From IMG/VR virus record IMGVR_UViG_3300020044_003173, positions 1 through 61,879 of that record: 61,879 bases of DNA, one strand, 5' to 3'. The notes below the pieces were generated by a model. It saw only the letters and a list, made by a program, of their open reading frames with translations, had not been told where the DNA came from and searched no databases. Shown piece after piece: positions 3,138 to 61,879 of this stretch (position 1 is the stretch's first letter; each line of letters begins with the position of its first letter). The position numbers and the translations under genes are program-made. The DNA comes from a virus. Its lineage: Duplodnaviria; Caudoviricetes.

Positions 3138-3392
3138 CTAGCGGATAGTGCGCAGGTAGTCCTTTATGGCTGGGGCAAGAAGCCTACTGGGGACGCACAC
3201 CCCGCAAAACCAATTGTAGACGGTCTGCCTGGAGACCTTCATGTGTTTTGCAACTTCCCTGACCGGGACGCCGTGCTGTAGGCACGCGGCCCCCAGTTCT
3301 ATCCCCAACAGTGCTTCTCTAGGCTTCCCGTAGTGCGCTTGGAGCGCACTACGGTTCTTCTCGCTAAGGAGTAGGGTGTAACCTTGGCTCAT
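3138..3392 (-). CDS. Cro/XRE-like HTH protein
   Basis: VREVAKHMKVSRQTVYNWF helix-turn-helix. Confidence 0.8.
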   Translation of the reverse strand: MSQGYTLLLSEKNRSALQAHYGKPREALLGIELGAACLQHGVPVREVAKHMKVSRQTVYNWFCGVCVPSRLLAPAIKDYLRTIR

Positions 3393-3398
3393 AATATC

Positions 3399-4298
3399 CT
3401 ACTCGTCATCCGTCCATGCATCCATAGCTGACGCGAGGGCTGGTTTAATGGGCGCGGCTTCGGCCTTCTTGGTGTACGTGCGCTTGGTGGGCGCGGCAAC
3501 CACCTCTTCTTCCTCTTCCTCAGGCTCCGCCGTACGTGCAACCCGCGCAGCGGGGGCAGCCGCAGGGGGCTTCGGCACCTTATCCGCTTGCGCCACCACC
3601 AGCTTGGTAAGCCGCTCAGTAGCTGGGTCTTCCTGAGCCAGGGTCACAAGTTCAAGCTCTTCGTCGCTGATCTCCCGCACCGGGGAGAACAGAAGCTCCA
3701 TAGAGTCCGCGTTCAGGTCGTACGCAATCGTAGTCACAACCCGGTCGATGGAGAACCCGTTGGCAGGGAGGTAGTTCTTGTAGCTCTCGAACGGATGGAC
3801 GTTAGCGGTGCCCTTGCCAAACAGAGACTTGGCAGGGATGCTGAACTGATAAACGTCTCCGGACGTATCCCCCTCAAGAAGCACCGCGATGCGCCGCTGG
3901 TACCGGCAAGCCCGGCTACCTTGCTTACCCGAGCCCTTCACATTTTGGGGGCAGGTTGCGCAGGTGGCGGACTGGCGGTTAGACGCCGCAGTCTCGGGCT
4001 TATCTCCCAGGTTAGACCAGCAGTCAGGGAGGGTCGCCTTGGCGTTAGGGTCGTACTCAGCCTCGTAGAAAACCCGTGACACCTTATCCAGGGCCGCGAC
4101 GATGATGACGTTGATCTCGCCACGGACGGCGTTGCCGATCTGCTCCCCGTTGATGATACGCTTGAAGGTGCCGTTCGTATTGGTCTGGATGCGCCGCGTG
4201 CTATCCGGAGCCGCCAGGGACTTAGCCAGTGCGCTAAGCTCCCGCTTACCAGCGTAGGTGGGGGCGGTTTGGTTCTTAAAGATGGTGATGTTGCTCAT
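3399..4298 (-). CDS. Putative ssDNA-binding/annealing protein
   Basis: Replication module; CWS...CATCPQN...C motif; acidic tail ending WTDDE. Confidence 0.6.
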   Translation of the reverse strand: MSNITIFKNQTAPTYAGKRELSALAKSLAAPDSTRRIQTNTNGTFKRIINGEQIGNAVRGEINVIIVAALDKVSRVFYEAEYDPNAKATLPDCWSNLGDKPETAASNRQSATCATCPQNVKGSGKQGSRACRYQRRIAVLLEGDTSGDVYQFSIPAKSLFGKGTANVHPFESYKNYLPANGFSIDRVVTTIAYDLNADSMELLFSPVREISDEELELVTLAQEDPATERLTKLVVAQADKVPKPPAAAPAARVARTAEPEEEEEEVVAAPTKRTYTKKAEAAPIKPALASAMDAWTDDE

Positions 4299-4310
4299 CG
4301 GGTGTATTCC

Positions 4311-4715
4311 CTAGCGTGCCGTAGGACGGCGGATTTGGATGGTGAACTTGTTTTCGGCTTGAAGGCCCATAGGGACTTCATCCGGGTTATCCTCAAGAAA
4401 TTGGCGCATCATAGTGTTGCTGATCCGGCGCTCCAGAAGGAACGGAGCCTCGTGCTCACTGATGAACGCATACATAGCCTCCCAGTCGTTAGTCCAATAG
4501 CGGGAGGTAACTCTCCGGGAGACGGTGCCAGCAGCGGTCTTAATGCTGTCGGCGTGCTGCTCGTTACATACATCTAGCAGCGCGGTGCTTATGGCGTCTT
4601 GTTGTTCCTTTAGTTCAGCGATCTCGGCTTTGTGCGCGGCTTCCCGCTCCGAGATGGTATCCCGCAGGACTATGTACTCTGCCACGAGCACGTCAAGGGG
4701 TGTATCGGTAGGCAT
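4311..4715 (-). CDS. Hypothetical coiled-coil protein (Gam/Gp157-like)
   Basis: N-terminal coiled coil; conserved-looking SIKTAAGTV and DWEAMYAFI segments; AGGAG SD. Confidence 0.6.
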   Translation of the reverse strand: MPTDTPLDVLVAEYIVLRDTISEREAAHKAEIAELKEQQDAISTALLDVCNEQHADSIKTAAGTVSRRVTSRYWTNDWEAMYAFISEHEAPFLLERRISNTMMRQFLEDNPDEVPMGLQAENKFTIQIRRPTAR

Positions 4716-4738
4716 CGGTTGCTCCTTTTTATACCCCC

Positions 4739-4766
4739 ATTATGAGGGGTATTTTTACAATGTCAA
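4739..4766 (-). promoter_or_regulatory. Sigma70-type promoter
   Basis: TTGACA-16nt-CATAAT on the minus strand upstream of 4715. Confidence 0.6.
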
Positions 4767-6145
4767 GCAGCTTCTTCGATCTCTTGGCGGTACAGGTCCA
4801 CGATCTTTTCGTGGTTCGTGATGTTATTCCTAAGCATGGTGTAGAGGCGACGCTCGACATCGCTACCTTGGATATGCACCACACACATGGAATTTTTCTG
4901 CCCAGGGCGGTTAATGCGCGCATTAGCCTGGAGATAAGTCTCCACACTTGTAACCGGCGCGTACCAGATCACCGTGTCCGCAGCCGTCAGGGTCAGCCCG
5001 TGGGAAGCCGCTTGAGGCTGGATAATCAGCACACGAGGCTCGACCTTCGTTTGGAAATCCTGAATGATCTCGTTGCGCTTGTTGACCGACACCGGCCCGT
5101 TGATAACCGCACAGCTAATATTGTGCTTCTCCAAATGCTCCCGTAGAAGCGTTATCGTGTGGGTGAAGGGGACGAAGATAAGAACCTTGTGGGAGGCTTC
5201 TTCGATAACCTCACGGACGACATTAAGCCGGTTGCTCACATCGAACTCTAGGGTGCTGCCATCATCGGCGTACACCGCCCCACCGGAAATTTGCAGGAGC
5301 TTGTTCAAGTTGGTCGCCGCATTGATCGCCGTAACTGCGTCGCCCCCGGCTTCGAACGTCATCTGGAGTTTTAGCTTCTTGTAGTAGGAAGCTTGTTGCG
5401 GGGTCAGCGGCGCATCCCGGTCCACGTAGGTCACGTCTGGTAGGTCAAGGCACTGCGACCGCTCAAACCGGATCGCCGGTTGCAACATCTGATGCACGAG
5501 AGCCTCGGCGTGCGGCTTAGGAGCCCACTTAAACTGGGTAATGCGGTACATCACCATATCGCGGAACTGGCCGTAGTACTTGGGAGTGCCCGCCGGGTTG
5601 ATAAGTTTAGCCAACCCATAAGCGTCGAGGGGGGACTGCGCGGCGGGCGTACCCGTGAGCATCCACATACCCTTAGCAGTTGCAGCGACCTTGTTGAGCA
5701 CCTTCCACCGCTGGGTCGCGGGGTTCTTCACGAAATTAGCCTCGTCCACGACGATAAGGTCGAACCCCCCGGCCATGACTTCGTTCATGACGGAAGCGAG
5801 CCCATCGAAGTTAATAATCACAAACTCCGCCTTGGAGTTGACGACCTTCTTCCGGACAGGTGCGCTACCGTACGCAACGGCTACACTACGGTGCATGGCG
5901 AACTTGAACAGGTCTTGTTGCCAAGCGGACTTCATGATGGATAGGGGGCATACAACCAGCACGCGCCGAACCTTACCCAGGTTCATAAGGTAGTCCGCAG
6001 CCCAGATAACGGCGGCTGTCTTGCCGGTGCCCGCCTCGGAGAAACAGAAAGCCTTCTTGCGAGAAGACAGAAACTCAGCCGTCGCCTCTTGGTGGGTGAA
6101 GGGCTTGAGCTTACCCGTCCACCGGTAGTCAGTAAGGATACTCAT
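4763..6145 (-). CDS. SNF2-family (SF2) helicase
   Basis: GTGKT, VVDEA, LTGTP, HGLTLT, QANARINRPGQ motifs. Confidence 0.92.
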   Translation of the reverse strand: MSILTDYRWTGKLKPFTHQEATAEFLSSRKKAFCFSEAGTGKTAAVIWAADYLMNLGKVRRVLVVCPLSIMKSAWQQDLFKFAMHRSVAVAYGSAPVRKKVVNSKAEFVIINFDGLASVMNEVMAGGFDLIVVDEANFVKNPATQRWKVLNKVAATAKGMWMLTGTPAAQSPLDAYGLAKLINPAGTPKYYGQFRDMVMYRITQFKWAPKPHAEALVHQMLQPAIRFERSQCLDLPDVTYVDRDAPLTPQQASYYKKLKLQMTFEAGGDAVTAINAATNLNKLLQISGGAVYADDGSTLEFDVSNRLNVVREVIEEASHKVLIFVPFTHTITLLREHLEKHNISCAVINGPVSVNKRNEIIQDFQTKVEPRVLIIQPQAASHGLTLTAADTVIWYAPVTSVETYLQANARINRPGQKNSMCVVHIQGSDVERRLYTMLRNNITNHEKIVDLYRQEIEEAA

Positions 6146-26116: not shown

Positions 26117-26737
26117 ATGACTGTTACCCGGATCGAGCCCACTAGAGAATACCCACCTCCCTACGATAACAGCGACGAGCGGTCTTCTACGCTTATTGAG
26201 GAATTAACCGTCGCCGCCAATACCGCAGAACTGCAACACGCCCTCGGGGCCCCCCTGGATACCGAACAGCTAGACCCTGCCCAAACCCAGAAGCTTTTCA
26301 ACGATGCGCTTCAGGGTAAGGAAAAGAGCCGGGAGGTCACTAATCATGCCATGGCTTACGCAGCGGCGGCCTTCTTGCGAACCTATGGGCAGAACGTCGC
26401 CTTCGATGCGATCCAGATACGCAATGCCATCACGACCAAACTCCTAGAACTTGCCAACTGCGGCGATACGAAGCACGAGCTACGGGCCCTGGAGCTTCTA
26501 GGTAAGCACAGCGACGTGGGGCTGTTCACCGAGCGGTCGGAAATCACTATTAACTACAAGACGCCCGAAGCCCTTGAGGAAGCCATCAAGGAGCGGGTCA
26601 AGCGCCTGCTCAACGCGGACGTGATCGATGTTACCCCCATTAGTATGGACTTGGACGAGGAGTTTGGGATCGCCAGACCCTTCGAAGACCGCGAACCCCC
26701 CCAAACTGCTTGGGACCTGTTGGAAGAAGACCTGTGA
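26117..26737 (+). CDS. terS: Putative terminase small subunit
   Basis: Directly upstream of TerL with GTGA overlap; LRALELLGK..DVGLFTER motif. Confidence 0.65.
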   Translation: MTVTRIEPTREYPPPYDNSDERSSTLIEELTVAANTAELQHALGAPLDTEQLDPAQTQKLFNDALQGKEKSREVTNHAMAYAAAAFLRTYGQNVAFDAIQIRNAITTKLLELANCGDTKHELRALELLGKHSDVGLFTERSEITINYKTPEALEEAIKERVKRLLNADVIDVTPISMDLDEEFGIARPFEDREPPQTAWDLLEEDL

Positions 26738-29700
26738 CCTTCAACCCCAATGGCGTCTCCCTGGAAGATATCCCCTCGATCCTTCCGTATTTGTCGGTTA
26801 GTGAGCGCGAGCGGCTGCTTGCGGAACTGGATAAGCTTGGGGAGCTAAAGGCGCAGAAACAGGCGCAGCTTCGGTTCCTACCTTTCGTCAAGGAAGTTTG
26901 GCCTACGTTTATCGGGGGCAAGCACCACAAGATCATGGCGGAAGCCTTTGAGCGTGTTGCTAACGGAACCTGTAAAAGACTCATTATTAATCTCGCGCCT
27001 CGGCACCCGCTAAGCGTGGATGAGAAAATCCTGACGACTTCAGGATGGAAAACTATGGGTTCTGTGCAGCCGGGGGACTACGTTTTTGGCCCTGACGGAT
27101 TGCCTACTTTGGTTGTTGGTAAGTCTGAAACCCATAAAAACCGCGAGCTATACGAAGTAGAAACCGATGACGGGGCGGTCGTAACCTGCGACGGGGACCA
27201 CCGGTGGCTTGTGTGCCTTGAGCGCAAGACCAAAATTTTTAGGGAGTACACGGCGGACCAGTTGTGGCAGCGGGACCAGGGCGCGAGGCTGTACCCATCC
27301 TCTAGAGGGGTGCATATAGCTCCTGGGCGTGCTCTTAATCCTCGCGCCGCCAAGCTACCCCCCACCTGCGCCGTACAACTACCCGAAGTTATCCTACCTA
27401 TAGACCCCTATGTTTTGGGTGTGTGGCTGGGTGACGGCACGAGCGCGCAGGGCGTAATTACTTCGCACGATGCAGATTCTCCGCAGGTTAGAGCCGAGTT
27501 TGCGCGACGGGGGTACGCAACTACCGACCAGACGACGCGCATGACGTTTGGCGTCCTGGGGTTGAAGGTAAAGCTGCGCGACCTTGGAGTGCTTGGGGAC
27601 AAACACATTCCCGAGGCTTATTTTTTGGGTTCCGAGCAGCAGCGGTTAGACCTCGTTCGCGGGCTTATGGACACAGACGGGAATGTGTCTGCGAAGGGCC
27701 AGTGTTTTTTCGCGCAGAAGTCTCTGCGGGTTGTTGATGGGTTTCGGCGGCTTCTTTGGAGTCTGGGGGTTAAGAATAGTCTGCAAACCAATAATGTTAC
27801 CCTGAATGGTAAAGACTACGGGGTTCACTACAAAGTATCCTTCTACATGAAGGGGTGCGCTACGCTCCCTCGGAAGGCAGATCGTACGTTTAACGGGGTT
27901 TCGGGACGGTTCGTTCGCTTCCGCAAGACCGACCGCACGGGCGATACGGTGTGTATTGAGGTTGCTCGGGAGGACCACTTATTCCTTGTTGGGGAAGGTA
28001 TGGTCCCGACACTTAATACCAAGAGCGAATTTGCTTCATATTTACTTCCCGCGTGGTTTCTGGGGAAGTTCCCTAATAAGAAGATCATCCAAATCTCCCA
28101 CACAGCGGAATTGGCTGTTGGTTTTGGTCGTAAGGTCAGAAACCTTGTAGATACAGAGGTTTACCACCGGATTTTCCCAGAATTGGGGCTGCAAGCGGAC
28201 TCCAAGGCTGCTGGTCGCTGGAACACGTCCAAGGGTGGGGACTACTTTGCCATCGGGATCGGGGGCGCGGTTACTGGTAAAGGCGCAGACCTACTCATTA
28301 TTGACGACCCGCACTCCGAGCAAGAGGCCGCTATAGCCGAGACTAACCCAGATATCTACGATAAGACCTATGAGTGGTACACTTCGGGGCCTAGGCAGCG
28401 TCTGCAACCTGGGGCTGCCATTATTATCGTGCAAACTAGATGGTCAAAGCGAGACCTTACCGGACAGGTATTGAAAGCCGCTGCTCAACGTGGGGGTGAG
28501 GATTGGGAAGTAATCGAGCTTCCTGCTATTTTACCCTCTGGAGCGCCCATTTGGCCTGAGTTTTGGTCCCTTGAGGAGCTTACGGCCCTAAAAGAAGAGC
28601 TTCCTAACTCCAAGTGGCAGGCTCAGTACCAGCAATCGCCCACTTCCGAGACGAGCGCCATTATCAAGCGGGAGTGGTGGAAGACTTGGGAGTCAGAAAA
28701 GCCTCCTAAGTGCGAATTTGTCCTCATGTCGTGGGATACGGCGTTCGAGAAGAGCCAGAGGTCCGACTTTTCCGCGCTGACCACCTGGGGGGTGTTCTAC
28801 CAACCGGACGCCACAGGCGAAATGCAGGCCAATATCATCCTTTTGAACGCCTTTAGGGAGCGGATGGAGTTCCCTAGGCTCAAGCAGGTGGCGATTGATC
28901 AATATAAAGAGTGGGAGCCTGACGGGGTTATTATCGAGAAGAAGGCTTCTGGGGCTCCTCTAATCTACGAACTTCGTGCTATGGGTATCCCTGTGCAGGA
29001 ATTTACACCCTCTAAGGGTAACGATAAGATATCCAGGCTTAATGCGGTGTCGGATGTCTTCGCCAGCGGGCGGGTGTGGGCTCCAAATACACACTGGGCC
29101 GATGAGGTTATCAACGAGGTAGCTGAGTTTCCTGCCGGGGAACACGATGACTTCTGTTTTGTAGCAGGGACACTTATTGCTACCCCAAAGGGTCCAGTAC
29201 CAATTGAGGCTATACAGCCTGGGGATAAGGTCATTACCCCCCTAGGCGTCCAGCGAGTTTTGTCCTCAGGCTGCACAGGGGTGCGCCCTGTTGTTACTCG
29301 GTTTGGGTTGACCGGGACAGGGAACCACCCGGTATACACCCTTGACTCCGGGTGGAAGAACCTTGATACAGTATGTATTACAGATACTCTATCGAGGTTC
29401 ACACCATGCGATATGATGAAGCTACGGCACCCGAAACAATTGAGTTTAATGGGGTTATCTACCGACGTATGGGCGGTAAACGCCGGTACTACCTATCCCA
29501 AAGCACCACTAACGGCGGTCGTAAAGGCGCTAAAGGGCTCCATGTGGCTATTTGGGAGCACCATGCTGGGGCTTTGGTTCCGGCAGGGTATGAAGTCAAC
29601 CACATCGACCGCAACCCGTTCAACTTTGAACCTTCGAACCTCGAAAGCCTTCCAAAGGGCGTCCACCGCCGTATGCCAAAAGTATATTCCAATTTTGAGG

Positions 29701-30165
29701 CACAGTTGGAACATTTGGCGGCTATCCGCCCGCTCGCTGCTACATGGCATAAGTCTGAAGCCGGTCGTTTGTGGCATCGGGAGCACGGTATCGCTTCCCT
29801 CGCTGCGGCCCGAGCCGCTAGGGACACAAAACTTCCTGAGCCAGGACCCCCCTGTGCGTGGTGCGGGAGCCCCACAACCAAGAAAAACAGCCGGAAGAAG
29901 TTCTGCTCTACTTACTGCGGAGGTACCTACCACCGGTACGTTACCGGGAAGCGCAAAACCGTGCACCCCTACTTCGCAGCCCGTCTTCAATCTGACGGTT
30001 GAGAATGTACATTGCTACTACGCCAATGGTATTCTTGTACATAACTGCGACAGCACATCAATGGCGGTAATGCGCTTCCGTAAGGGTGGATATCTACGTA
30101 CTGACCTAGACGAACCAGATGTGTTACCTTCCTTTAGGAGCAAACGTGCTCAGGGGTACTACTAA
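26734..30165 (+). CDS. terL: Terminase large subunit precursor with two inteins (mature protein ~509 aa)
   Basis: Spliced Walker A APRH/TKS, LLIIDDP, QTRW..DL, SWDTA, IEKKASG, HDDF/CDS. Confidence 0.93.
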   Translation: MTFNPNGVSLEDIPSILPYLSVSERERLLAELDKLGELKAQKQAQLRFLPFVKEVWPTFIGGKHHKIMAEAFERVANGTCKRLIINLAPRHPLSVDEKILTTSGWKTMGSVQPGDYVFGPDGLPTLVVGKSETHKNRELYEVETDDGAVVTCDGDHRWLVCLERKTKIFREYTADQLWQRDQGARLYPSSRGVHIAPGRALNPRAAKLPPTCAVQLPEVILPIDPYVLGVWLGDGTSAQGVITSHDADSPQVRAEFARRGYATTDQTTRMTFGVLGLKVKLRDLGVLGDKHIPEAYFLGSEQQRLDLVRGLMDTDGNVSAKGQCFFAQKSLRVVDGFRRLLWSLGVKNSLQTNNVTLNGKDYGVHYKVSFYMKGCATLPRKADRTFNGVSGRFVRFRKTDRTGDTVCIEVAREDHLFLVGEGMVPTLNTKSEFASYLLPAWFLGKFPNKKIIQISHTAELAVGFGRKVRNLVDTEVYHRIFPELGLQADSKAAGRWNTSKGGDYFAIGIGGAVTGKGADLLIIDDPHSEQEAAIAETNPDIYDKTYEWYTSGPRQRLQPGAAIIIVQTRWSKRDLTGQVLKAAAQRGGEDWEVIELPAILPSGAPIWPEFWSLEELTALKEELPNSKWQAQYQQSPTSETSAIIKREWWKTWESEKPPKCEFVLMSWDTAFEKSQRSDFSALTTWGVFYQPDATGEMQANIILLNAFRERMEFPRLKQVAIDQYKEWEPDGVIIEKKASGAPLIYELRAMGIPVQEFTPSKGNDKISRLNAVSDVFASGRVWAPNTHWADEVINEVAEFPAGEHDDFCFVAGTLIATPKGPVPIEAIQPGDKVITPLGVQRVLSSGCTGVRPVVTRFGLTGTGNHPVYTLDSGWKNLDTVCITDTLSRFTPCDMMKLRHPKQLSLMGLSTDVWAVNAGTTYPKAPLTAVVKALKGSMWLFGSTMLGLWFRQGMKSTTSTATRSTLNLRTSKAFQRASTAVCQKYIPILRHSWNIWRLSARSLLHGISLKPVVCGIGSTVSLPSLRPEPLGTQNFLSQDPPVRGAGAPQPRKTAGRSSALLTAEVPTTGTLPGSAKPCTPTSQPVFNLTVENVHCYYANGILVHNCDSTSMAVMRFRKGGYLRTDLDEPDVLPSFRSKRAQGYY
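27007..28017 (+). mobile_element. Class 3 intein (337 aa) with LAGLIDADG endonuclease, inserted in TerL Walker A
   Basis: Starts with Pro; DHRW (block B), TVCIEV (block F), PTLN/T (block G); LGVWLGDG and RGLMDTDG motifs. Confidence 0.88.
29155..30045 (+). mobile_element. Class 1 intein (297 aa) in the TerL nuclease domain
   Basis: CFVAGTLIATPKG, TGNHPV, VFNLTVENVHCYYANGILVHN/C. Confidence 0.92.
29406..30002 (+). CDS. HNH homing endonuclease overprinted out of frame inside intein 2
   Basis: GAGGT SD 7 nt before ATG; LHVAIWE...VNHIDRNPFNFEPSNLE; C-terminal CAWCG...FCSTYC. Confidence 0.85.
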   Translation: MRYDEATAPETIEFNGVIYRRMGGKRRYYLSQSTTNGGRKGAKGLHVAIWEHHAGALVPAGYEVNHIDRNPFNFEPSNLESLPKGVHRRMPKVYSNFEAQLEHLAAIRPLAATWHKSEAGRLWHREHGIASLAAARAARDTKLPEPGPPCAWCGSPTTKKNSRKKFCSTYCGGTYHRYVTGKRKTVHPYFAARLQSDG

Positions 30166-32696
30166 TGTCCATCGATAAAGCCCTCAACCGTGCCCCCCTT
30201 GGTCTACAGGACCCTGAGGACGACTTCGATCCCCTGGTTGAGATCGAGATCACGCCCGATGAGCGGGATGAAGCCGATGAGATGGACGAAGCCTTCGATG
30301 AGGAGGCTCAGGAGGAGTTTAACCTCAATCTAGCCGAAGAAATGGACAAAAAGGACCTGACGGAGCTTGTTGGGGACCTTCTGGCCGACTTCGAAGACGA
30401 TATTTCGTCCCGTAAGGACTGGATACAGACCTACGTGGATGGTCTTGAGCTTCTGGGGATGAAGATTGAGGACCGTTCGGAGCCTTGGCCTGGGGCTTGC
30501 GGCGTCTACCACCCCCTGCTCAGCGAGGCCCTGGTCAAGTTCCAGGCCGAGACCATGATGGAGACTTTCCCCTCCGCTGGTCCTGTGAAGACCCAAATCC
30601 TCGGTAAGGAGACCCCCGAGAAGAAGGATGCGGCTGCCCGCGTCCAAGAAGACATGAACTACCAACTTACTGAGCGGATGGTGGAGTACCGTCCCGAGCA
30701 GGAGCGGATGCTTTGGGGCCTTGGGTTGGCCGGTAACGCCTTTAAGAAGGTATATTATGATCCTTCTATGGGTAGGCAGGTCTCGCTGTTTGTCCCGGCT
30801 GAAGACGTGGTTGTGCCCTACGGGGCTTCCAACTTGCAAACCTGCGAGCGCGTCACCCATGTGATGCGCAAGACCCCCAACGAGCTAAAGAAGCTCCAGG
30901 CGGCTGGGTTCTACCGGGATATCGACCTTGGAGACCCTTCGGATAGCTTCGATGAAGTAGAGAAGAAGATCGCGGAGCGCATGGGGTTCCGCGCTACGAC
31001 CGACGACCGCTACAAGATTCTGGAGATGCACGTCGATGTGGACCTCCCCGGCTATGAAGACTTGGACGATAAAAAGAAGCCGACCGGCATCGCCCTGCCC
31101 TACGTTGTTACAATTGAGAAAAGCACACAAGAAGTACTTGCGATCCGTCGCAATTGGCACCCGGACGACGAAAATAAACAGAAGCGCAATCACTTTGTAC
31201 ACTACTCGTATATTCCGGGGTTTGGCTTCTACGCTTTTGGACTCATTCACCTTATCGGTGCTTTTGCTAAGTCTGGCACTTCTATTATTCGTCAGTTGGT
31301 CGATGCTGGCACTCTATCTAACCTGCCGGGCGGCTTTAAGACCAAGGGGCTTCGCGTCAAGGGTGATGACACGCCTATCGCCCCTGCGGAATGGCGGGAC
31401 GTTGATGTCGCCAGCGGCACCATGCGCGACAATATTATGCCGCTCCCCTACAAGGAGCCCAGCCAAGTCCTCTACACCCTCCTGAACACCATCGTGGAAG
31501 AGGGGCGCAGGTTCGCCAGTGCGGCTGACCTTAACCTGTCCGACATGAGTGCTCAGGCCCCGGTGGGCACCACTCTGGCTATCCTTGAGCGCACTCTTAA
31601 GGTCATGTCCGCCGTCCAGGCGCGCATCCACTACGCTATGCGTCAGGAGTTCAGGCTCCTGAAGGACATTATTCGGGACTACACGCCCGATGAGTACAAC
31701 TACGAGCCCACCGAGGGGGGCTCGCGGGCTAAGAAGTCCGACTATGACTCCGTGGAAGTCATCCCGGTAAGCGACCCTAACGCCGCCACTATGGCGCAGA
31801 AGGTTGTGCAGTATCAGGCTGTTATGCAACTGGCGCAGGGAGCGCCGCAGCTTTACGACCTTCCGTACCTGCACCGGCAGATGCTTGAGGTTCTGGGACT
31901 TAAGAACGCTTCTAAGCTTGTGCCTATGGATGATGACCAGAAGCCGCGTGATCCAGTGTCGGAGAACATGGCCGTCATCAACGGTAAGCCGGTCAAGGCG
32001 TTCCTGTACCAAGACCACGAGTCGCACATTACCGTGCACATGTCCGCGATGCAGGACCCGCAGATCGCTAAGCTTATGGGGCAGAACCCCAATGCTCAGG
32101 CCATGATGGCGGCTATGCAGTCTCACATCGCGGAACACCTGTCGTTTGAGTACCGTAAGAAGATCGAAGAAGCCGCAGGGGTGCCGTACCCGGCTCCTGA
32201 CGCCCCGATGGACGAGGACACTGAGCTTGAGGTGTCCAGGCTCGCCGCTGCCGCAGCCAAGAAAGTTCTCCAACAGAGCCAGTCCAAGATGGCTCAGGAA
32301 CAAGCCCGACAGACCGCTCAGGACCCCATCGTCCAGATGCAACAGCAAGAGTTGCAGATCAAGGCGCAGGAAGTGAAGATCAAGGAGCAGAAGCTTGCTC
32401 TCGACTCCGCCGCCAAGGCTGACCAGCTTGAGATCGAGAAGGAACGCCTCGCCGTGCAGGAGCGCGTTGCTGGGATGCAGGTGGGAGCCAAGATCGCCAC
32501 CGATAAGGCCAACCTGTCCGCCAAACAGCAGGCGGAGGGGCTTCGTATGGGGATCGAAGTCGCCCGAGAGGCGGCTCAACAGGACCACCAGAAGAGTATG
32601 GCGGTGGTTAACCATCTATCGCAACAAGAGCTACAGGCGCAAAACGCCCAGGCCCAGCAAGAAGTTCCCCAAGAAGAACCCGGAGAAGGTGAATGA
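30165..32696 (+). CDS. Portal protein
   Basis: 843 aa directly after TerL; AFKKVYYD, GFYAFGLIH, Q-rich C-terminal coiled coil. Confidence 0.88.
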   Translation: MSIDKALNRAPLGLQDPEDDFDPLVEIEITPDERDEADEMDEAFDEEAQEEFNLNLAEEMDKKDLTELVGDLLADFEDDISSRKDWIQTYVDGLELLGMKIEDRSEPWPGACGVYHPLLSEALVKFQAETMMETFPSAGPVKTQILGKETPEKKDAAARVQEDMNYQLTERMVEYRPEQERMLWGLGLAGNAFKKVYYDPSMGRQVSLFVPAEDVVVPYGASNLQTCERVTHVMRKTPNELKKLQAAGFYRDIDLGDPSDSFDEVEKKIAERMGFRATTDDRYKILEMHVDVDLPGYEDLDDKKKPTGIALPYVVTIEKSTQEVLAIRRNWHPDDENKQKRNHFVHYSYIPGFGFYAFGLIHLIGAFAKSGTSIIRQLVDAGTLSNLPGGFKTKGLRVKGDDTPIAPAEWRDVDVASGTMRDNIMPLPYKEPSQVLYTLLNTIVEEGRRFASAADLNLSDMSAQAPVGTTLAILERTLKVMSAVQARIHYAMRQEFRLLKDIIRDYTPDEYNYEPTEGGSRAKKSDYDSVEVIPVSDPNAATMAQKVVQYQAVMQLAQGAPQLYDLPYLHRQMLEVLGLKNASKLVPMDDDQKPRDPVSENMAVINGKPVKAFLYQDHESHITVHMSAMQDPQIAKLMGQNPNAQAMMAAMQSHIAEHLSFEYRKKIEEAAGVPYPAPDAPMDEDTELEVSRLAAAAAKKVLQQSQSKMAQEQARQTAQDPIVQMQQQELQIKAQEVKIKEQKLALDSAAKADQLEIEKERLAVQERVAGMQVGAKIATDKANLSAKQQAEGLRMGIEVAREAAQQDHQKSMAVVNHLSQQELQAQNAQAQQEVPQEEPGEGE

Positions 32697-61759: not shown

Positions 61760-61879
61760 AAAACTCCCCCCGAGAGCGAATCATCGGGGGGAGAGGTGGC
61801 GGAAGGAGCAACTTCCGAGGCGGACCTTAAGCTATAGCCTCCAGATACGCAACCCACGCACCCCGTCTGCGATTACCAC
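61759..61879. repeat. Terminal direct repeat (copy of 1-121)
   Basis: Exact match. Confidence 0.95.

Follow-up and report, generated by a model that had tools for sequence, protein, structure and literature searches.

Inteins are usually taught as single polypeptides that carry their own homing endonuclease domain. Here we examine an intein whose candidate endonuclease is instead encoded by a separate HNH gene, overprinted on the intein's own DNA in another reading frame. It lies in terL, the gene for the large terminase (TerL), of the IMG/VR virus record IMGVR_UViG_3300020044_003173 (Duplodnaviria; Caudoviricetes), the whole of which, 61,879 nucleotides (nt), was analyzed and is called the window below. 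Two inteins interrupt this terL, and the overprint concerns the second, intein 2. We refer to the reading frame of terL as the TerL frame and to that of the nested gene, at +2 relative to it, as the HNH frame. The features on which the argument turns are the following (pLDDT, predicted local distance difference test).

26710..30165, plus strand: terL, the large terminase open reading frame (ORF), 1151 amino acids (aa) with two inteins; Pfam matches Terminase_6C, Hint_2, LAGLIDADG_3 and Intein_splicing
29155..30045, plus strand: intein 2, 297 codons, TerL residues 816-1112, of class-1 type (Cys1, TxxH, HN then Cys)
29155..29430, plus strand: N-terminal splicing (Hint) part, intein residues 1-92; pLDDT 86-98 for residues 1-90
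29358..29400, plus strand: predicted RNA hairpin whose 3' arm pairs with the GAGGT; minimum free energy -29.3 kcal/mol over 29350-29450, z -3.3
29364..29366, plus strand: TGA that closes the HNH frame upstream
29394..29398, plus strand: Shine-Dalgarno-like GAGGT, 7 nt upstream of the ATG at 29406
29406..30002, plus strand: HNH_3 endonuclease gene, 198 aa, frame +2 relative to terL; HNH core and a single C-terminal zinc ribbon
29431..29964, plus strand: TerL-frame linker, intein residues 93-270; predicted unstructured filler, no Pfam match
29965..30045, plus strand: C-terminal splicing part, blocks F and G, intein residues 271-297; pLDDT 92-97; matches the C-splice hidden Markov model (HMM) family
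30046..30048, plus strand: extein +1 Cys codon, the predicted splicing nucleophile; Val in intein-less alleles

Read in the TerL frame, intein 2 has the two ends of a class-1 intein and a featureless middle. It is inserted behind the HDDF motif in the C-terminal nuclease domain of TerL, starts with CFVAGTLI, carries TGTGNHP as block B, and ends with ILVHN followed by Cys. On the N side, Cys1 and His58 of the TGNH motif are each invariant (54 of 54 aligned sequences) and Thr55 is kept in at least 90%; on the C side, the Asn297 of the terminal VHN, before Cys, is equally invariant (54 of 54). Pfam finds Hint_2 (E 6e-9) and Intein_splicing in the TerL frame alone, and in the middle of that frame, 29371-29997, nothing at E ≤ 1. 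An AlphaFold model of the TerL-frame intein, built on a 54-row alignment, has a pLDDT of about 97 at residues 1-90 and 271-297; between them, residues ~96-270 (about 175-180 residues) fall to 40-55 and adopt no secondary structure. Foldseek matches the model to the BIL domain 2lwy (E 4.4e-5) and to the Ssp DnaB mini-intein (E 5e-4), which places it in the Hint fold. The TerL frame runs uninterrupted from the N to the C part, so that in the window the intein is contiguous rather than split. Because terL is essential and the catalytic residues are conserved, intein 2 probably splices.

The HNH frame, in turn, holds what the TerL frame lacks. Its 29406-30002 ORF is the only frame to match PF13392 (HNH_3), with a score of 43.3 bits where the cut-off is 24.8 (E 2.8e-11), and it is open from 29367 to 30002, so that both frames are free of stops over 636 nt. 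Because of the TGA at 29364-29366, the gene cannot be read as an extension of an upstream ORF; at the other end its stop, TGA at 30000-30002, sits inside intein block F (NLTVEN). Many relatives have an AGGAG-like motif 4-10 nt ahead of a start codon that lies just past the N-splice domain, and it is this recurrence, together with the closed upstream frame and the GAGGT of the window, that suggests internal initiation of the HNH. A scan of 28800-30300 for promoters and terminators stayed at chance level (one promoter-like site, where 1.2 would be expected), and among the sequencing runs that contain this DNA no RNA run is listed. The protein's Pfam matches at E ≤ 1 are limited to HNH_3 and a weak zinc ribbon and do not include Endonuclease_7, which is absent from 10 relatives as well (Pfam, E ≤ 0.01). 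Its AlphaFold model, from a 54-row alignment, reaches a mean pLDDT of 91.1, and the top structural match is the homing enzyme I-HmuI (VIA Z 6.4, root-mean-square deviation 3.6, 78 residues; Foldseek E 0.35).

The original prediction, made from the letters and their ORFs, had anticipated this anatomy closely. It had placed intact splicing blocks here (C1 at 29155, TGNH, VHN/C at 30045), and all are present. The TerL-frame middle that it described as devoid of a nuclease motif is indeed empty to Pfam; the 198-aa ORF is located at 29406-30002, offset by +2, as it said, and is an HNH_3 gene; and the GAGGT 7 nt before the ATG and the stop within block F were both found in the sequence. The stretch open in both frames, which it had put at about 600 nt, measures 636 nt, and the profile comparison that it proposed cleanly separates the two frames, with HNH_3 in the HNH frame only and Hint in the TerL frame only.

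The evidence that decides whether such an arrangement is meaningful comes from relatives. A tblastn search of GenBank phages with the HNH returned 67 matching records, eight of which were inspected. In four of these eight, from Clostridium phage phiCDHM19, Acinetobacter phage Highwayman, Tetrasphaera phage TJE1 and Rhodobacteraceae phage LS06-2018-MD07, the HNH lies within the annotated terL coding sequence at an offset of +2; in phiCD119 both frames are broken; in PAE1, BP10 and CL2 the gene is free-standing and adjoins the terminase genes. A scan of IMG/VR yielded 4 loci with a single protein as query, and an alignment of 11 HNH proteins confirmed 393 relatives, the best 80 of which were used. 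The resulting set of 88 loci comprises the window, the four nested GenBank phages and 83 IMG/VR contigs; it leaves out L010, whose spans are identical to those of L009, and L005, in which both frames are broken, and the free-standing GenBank genes L003, L004 and L008 serve only as controls and as rows of the tree. The HNH lies wholly within a long ORF in 80 of the 88 loci, and this ORF is always in frame +1 relative to the HNH. The in-frame homologues that would have spoken against the original prediction did not appear: an HNH in frame with its host ORF, or in the remaining frame, occurs in none of the 88. Dereplication leaves the proportions similar, with the nested layout in 57 of the 65 clusters formed at 95% HNH identity and in 46 of the 54 formed at 60%, and a separate metagenome scan found it in 8 of 9 loci, two of those 8 (L009 and L011) being already counted above. 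Proteins of 348-2000 aa were also searched for in-frame fusions; none turned up at E ≤ 1e-5, which is weak evidence. The family is widely spread, through phages of Clostridium, Acinetobacter, Tetrasphaera and Rhodobacteraceae and many uncultured viruses.

The two partners agree among the relatives sampled. By Pfam, all seven host ORFs tested are TerL proteins (Terminase_6 or Terminase_3 types) with Hint_2 and Intein_splicing, and the ten tested ORFs from the alternate frame all match HNH_3. Splice-region HMMs, built from 8 seeds of which three are among the scored loci, find the N side in 75 of 75 nested IMG/VR loci and the C side in 74 of 75, the single miss falling at a contig end. Among 53 representatives, Cys1 is universal (53/53), the +1 residue is Cys in 49 and Ser in 4, and the intein ends in HN in 40 and in SN in 13. 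In the same representatives the median opening point of the HNH frame is intein codon 77, and the HNH stop lies 1-88 nt ahead of the intein end, at 55 nt in 21 of the 53 and at 43 nt in the window. This spread rules out the idea that the stop always arises from the Val-Glu/Asp codons of block F.

Two of the loci encountered here deserve a separate word. L005 (Clostridium phage phi CD119, 778-2595), whose terL is annotated in pieces (ter2, ORF3), differs in its broken TerL and HNH frames from its relative phiCDHM19, and this state could reflect either decay or old sequencing errors. In L102, a metagenome contig (1923-4166), the intein occupies residues 68-344 of a 748-aa ORF and is followed by about 400 residues, so that it may sit in another host gene, or at a place other than the usual one near the terL C-terminus.

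Selection in the relatives distinguishes the two frames. We compared 15 pairs of nested relatives at 63-94% HNH identity. Over the overlap, the ratio of nonsynonymous to synonymous substitution rates (dN/dS) is 0.05-0.32 for the HNH frame (one pair was not computable) as against 0.75-1.51 for the TerL frame. The differences fall on HNH codon positions 1, 2 and 3 in numbers of 633, 448 and 1218. From the start of the intein to the opening of the HNH frame, the TerL-frame dN/dS is 0.05-0.20 in the 9 of 15 pairs that are computable, and in the remaining 6 the proportion of nonsynonymous differences is far below that of synonymous ones. With the TerL frame so constrained upstream, the constrained frame therefore switches at the HNH boundary. 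In these relatives, purifying selection thus acts in the nuclease frame and not in the host frame of the overlap, as befits an out-of-frame endonuclease. Stops tell the same story, since the TerL frame has none across the HNH in any of the 8 seed loci, whereas the corresponding +1 frame of the free-standing homologues L003, L004 and L008 has 4, 14 and 8, and that of L067, a split locus described below, has 10. On these data the layout is real and kept by selection; they support a reading as dual coding, in which a stop-free linker runs over a separate HNH gene.

How mobile is the element? A 300-nt contig from an estuary metagenome matches 29010-29153 and 30058-30167, the two joined by 13 other letters, and is exactly 891 nt (297 codons) shorter than the window; it is an intein-less terL allele. 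Where the window encodes HDDF, the intein and then CDST-SMAV, this contig encodes HDDF-VDSC-SMAV. Its flanks differ from the window at 6 of 254 nt (the 95-99% band) and its junction, read by eye, at 7 of 15 nt, a crowding consistent with co-conversion or with immunity of the target site. A near-identical terL without the element, although known from one low-depth contig, is the patchy presence expected of a mobile homing gene. Other relatives that are intein-less at this site read HDDL-VDS or HDDF-VDT, with Val at +1, and the nearest cultured relatives have neither intein nor HNH: in HTVC027P and Pag-Yong1, terL is followed directly by the next gene. The names listed for the 67 HNH-matching records include no Pelagibacter, Planktothrix or Synechococcus phage.

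The layout also varies across the HNH tree. Built from 68 HNH proteins, this tree intermixes free-standing with nested forms; the nested state requires 4 changes, and well-supported branches force at least 3 of these. L014 falls into one group with the window, L009 and L013 (98% SH-aLRT support, an approximate likelihood-ratio test of Shimodaira-Hasegawa type); in L014 (1-4735) a free-standing HNH at 668-1300, which at 46% identity is the closest to that of the window among the non-nested loci retrieved, stands between an intein-less terL (Terminase_6C ends at 642) and the portal gene. L067 (2059-4260) is truly split, with terL-N and the intein N part ending at 3450, the HNH at 3441-4109, and the intein C part with terL-C at 3907-4260; the HNH gene overlaps the ORF of the C part, the 10 TerL-frame stops fall between the intein halves, and the locus is a "fractured gene" with an HNH-type nuclease. 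In L056 (3172-5265) the HNH is encoded on the other strand from terL and is flanked by the intein N part (4120-5265, minus) and C part (3172-3462, minus), and here too the TerL frame is interrupted, which makes both L067 and L056 split inteins.

Seen against the family, the further claims of the original prediction are supported in part. The dual-coding element that it proposed is borne out by the recurrence, by frame-specific selection and by the agreement of two structure predictions. The comparison of homologues that it called for, frame by frame, found the HNH frame constrained and the nested TerL frames without stops. Its passive, stop-free linker accords with the TerL-frame dN/dS of 0.75-1.51, the unstructured model and the lack of stops, and its notion that free HNH genes invade mini-inteins fits the relatives beside terL, the mixed HNH tree and the split forms.

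Taken together, we consider it highly probable that intein 2 is a contiguous, cis-splicing class-1 mini-intein within which a homing gene of the free-standing HNH_3 type is nested at +2. Ribosomes in the TerL frame would read straight through, making about 92 residues of Hint N, about 178 of unstructured filler and about 27 of Hint C, after which intein 2 would excise itself and rejoin the nuclease-domain motif of TerL. The HNH would be made separately, from its own start at 29406 behind the GAGGT; the ribosome-binding site (RBS) and the closed upstream frame suggest that homing may also be timed separately. During co-infection, the HNH would cut or nick an intein-less terL near HDDF/VD, and repair would copy the whole element in, a homing role for which its family and the existence of an intein-less allele both argue. 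Over the overlap, selection would act on the HNH protein, and on the TerL frame only against stops and frameshifts, as it does in the relatives.

Several observations weigh against this reading, and the first concerns chance. Under the most conservative null, a shuffle of synonymous codons in the HNH of the window, the probability of a stop-free TerL frame is a borderline 0.058. It is 0.016 when whole codons are permuted, and among segments of 198 codons drawn from 44 other ORFs of the same genome, each at least 200 codons long, 24 of 7909 are stop-free in that frame, where about 6.3 stops are expected. For the window alone the answer therefore depends on the null; the family settles the matter against chance, because 80 of the 88 related loci have the same pair of open frames. 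Other points concern the reach of the comparisons. The closest relative in the IMG/VR and metagenome scans has about 56% HNH identity, so the selection pairs exclude the window, and the 15 pairs, drawn from about six groups, cannot all count as independent. The intein-less allele is a single contig at a depth of 2.3. The likeness to I-HmuI is middling, and Foldseek against the PDB gave no match at E ≤ 0.001. Finally, two features of the gene itself count on the same side, namely an unusual residue in its active site and the hairpin that is predicted to pair its RBS and could limit its translation.

The unusual residue is codon 65 (29598-29600), which encodes Asn where 53 of the 54 aligned members have the first His of an HH pair; it is the sole exception. 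Because Asn65 replaces a conserved His, the activity of this copy is uncertain and may be weakened. It is accordingly possible, although we think it unlikely, that the HNH is already inactive in this phage, a decaying stage of the homing cycle, and that the element persists only since the intein has to go on splicing and any stop or frameshift in the linker would kill terL. The window's HNH also has one zinc ribbon where most family members have two. However, L009 and L007 are likewise single-ribbon, all other invariant residues (H46, H66, N78, H87, C150, C153 and C171) are retained, and the ORF is intact with a model pLDDT of 91. Asn, moreover, is able to bind metal in His-Me nucleases.

Could the hairpin, conversely, be the reason for the overprint? 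Only 1 of 200 shuffles of 29350-29450 folds equally well, and ribosomes translating terL might melt the structure and free the RBS, tying the nuclease to late terL translation; the overprint would then be regulatory, a selected expression strategy. If so, homing would be timed to the stage of replication and packaging, with nuclease dosage far below that of TerL. Such control is impossible for an in-frame endonuclease domain and would help explain why one frame is used in all 80 nested loci. The hairpin is not a family feature, however: in 17 relatives the z score at the HNH start lies between +0.83 and -2.06 and reaches -2 or lower in one. We regard this regulatory role as rather improbable.

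A third possibility, to which we give little credence, is that the HNH is a packaging helper of the terminase rather than a homing enzyme and resides within terL for co-expression. Free-standing homologues do adjoin terS or terL in PAE1, BP10, CL2 and L014, and Xu and Gupta 2012 (PMC3592412) speculate that HNH nickases beside terminase genes act in packaging. Against this, HTVC027P and Pag-Yong1 have an intein-less terL with the next gene directly behind it, and the organism names listed for the 67 HNH-matching records include none of the Pelagibacter, Planktothrix or Synechococcus phages. The near-identical terL allele lacks the whole insert, the family is HNH_3 with a homing enzyme as its top structural match, and the layout changes at least three times on the tree, as expected of a mobile gene.

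Production of the HNH by a programmed -1 frameshift, fused to TerL-N and the intein N part, seems to us very improbable. In its favor, every nested member has its HNH in the -1 frame of terL, but the TGA at 29364-29366 confines any shift to 29367-29405, no X XXY YYZ slippery heptamer was seen there by eye, and a start codon with an RBS-like motif is present in the window and in many relatives. That two compensating indels from assembly or sequencing moved an in-frame HNH out of frame is scarcely credible even though the only DNA runs found are two of small share that give no reads over 29182-30027, because the identical frame relation holds in 80 of 88 independent loci, four GenBank phage genomes included, the stops at both ends of the HNH frame lie in conserved intein sequence, and, as weak evidence, no long in-frame homologue was found among proteins of 348-2000 aa.

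The nested mini-intein thus remains the reading that we favor. The IMG/VR record is complete at 61,879 base pairs, with direct terminal repeats at its ends. The nearest relatives of its portal protein and TerL are Planktothrix phage Pag-Yong1, Synechococcus phage MinM2 and the pelagiphages HTVC023P and HTVC027P, at 41-55% aa identity, and at the nucleotide level a blastn search of 28400-30400 against phage records gave zero matches. The TerL frame has no stop from 26644 to 30165. Two inserts stand out when TerL is aligned to its intein-less counterparts in HTVC027P and Pag-Yong1, and upon loss of both inteins the mature protein would be of about 517 aa. The first insert lies outside the overprint:

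27007..28017, plus strand: intein 1, TerL residues 100-436, at the P-loop, PRH/TKSEF junction; in-frame LAGLIDADG_3

Intein 1 is canonical in carrying its endonuclease in frame, and its first residue is Pro, neither Cys nor Ser. Its motifs include a Trp (DHRW), a Cys (TVCIEV) and a Thr (PTLN), a pattern that presumably resembles that of class 3 inteins. Within the portal gene, a 433-aa antisense ORF (31314-32615, minus strand), rich in Leu, Arg and Gly, looks like a shadow of the portal frame. Apart from Asn65, the RBS hairpin and this second, canonical intein in terL, the window is ordinary for its family.

What does such a family mean for the biology of inteins? First, it is a stable alternative to the in-frame endonuclease: at least 46 lineages, with less than 60% HNH identity to one another, have kept it. 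Second, with free-standing, nested, antisense and split members, it offers a natural series for the view that splicing came first and the endonuclease later. Third, there is a practical consequence for annotation, as gene callers annotate such a terL as one long protein and miss the nuclease. Finally, the filler of about 180 residues indicates the size of an unstructured insert that the Hint fold presumably tolerates, which is of interest for intein engineering.

The intein described here is of a kind already in print in 2025-26, with a 1998 forerunner for which Phillips and colleagues credit Gorbalenya; the window is the widespread HNH_3 version of it. The original prediction, which knew of no described case, is in this respect out of date, as intein endonucleases encoded out of frame or antisense have now been published. 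Our search found no paper on the HNH_3 terL intein family itself, and the supplements of the 2025 preprint, which lay outside that search, might list members.

Closest in layout are the non-canonical inteins of Gosselin 2025, which counts the terminase large subunit among four host protein types. As in the window, these are contiguous inteins with a separate endonuclease ORF on the same strand, in frame 3, and an in-frame middle that has no recognizable structure, and their authors propose an origin by invasion of a free-standing homing endonuclease. Their actinophage type differs in the nuclease, which is endonuclease VII-like (IPR004211), whereas the family described here has an HNH_3 nuclease bearing zinc ribbons; neither the organism names listed for the 67 HNH-matching records nor the 11 records matching the TJE1 intein include a Gordonia phage. 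Phillips, DeSimone and Gogarten (bioRxiv 10.64898/2026.09.14.751524) describe, in cyanobacteria, a dnaX intein overlapped by a +2 ORF for a LAGLIDADG endonuclease, and propose secondary invasion of a mini-intein. It shares with the family described here two open frames and a low omega in the endonuclease frame alongside a raised one in the host frame, and differs in its cellular host, its gene and its endonuclease, dnaX and LAGLIDADG taking the place of phage terL and HNH_3. The ShiLan domain (Arsenault et al. 2025, PMC11855218) likewise has an HNH overprinted on a stop-free insertion in a phage gene, in that case a DNA methylase, but is reported without a detectable splicing domain or RBS, where the window has Hint blocks and an RBS-like motif.

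Further comparisons concern split inteins, other TerL inteins and free-standing genes. In the fractured genes of Dassa et al. 2009 (PMC2677866), which include a terminase case, split inteins flank a free-standing endonuclease gene. A nuclease gene of free-standing type between N and C splicing parts is common to these and to the window, and L067 and L056 share the split layout itself; the intein of the window is instead contiguous, and the nucleases of the fractured genes are GIY-YIG or Vsr-like. The mycobacteriophage TerL inteins of Kelley et al. 2016 all lie in the ATPase domain, in contrast to intein 2 at its nuclease-domain site. The free-standing HNH_3 genes (PAE1 Orf3, CL2_3, the HNH of vB_AbaM_BP10, and L014) are separate, placed between terL and portal or before terS, and yet belong to the same family as the gene nested in the window, with the same domain order and 27-46% identity.

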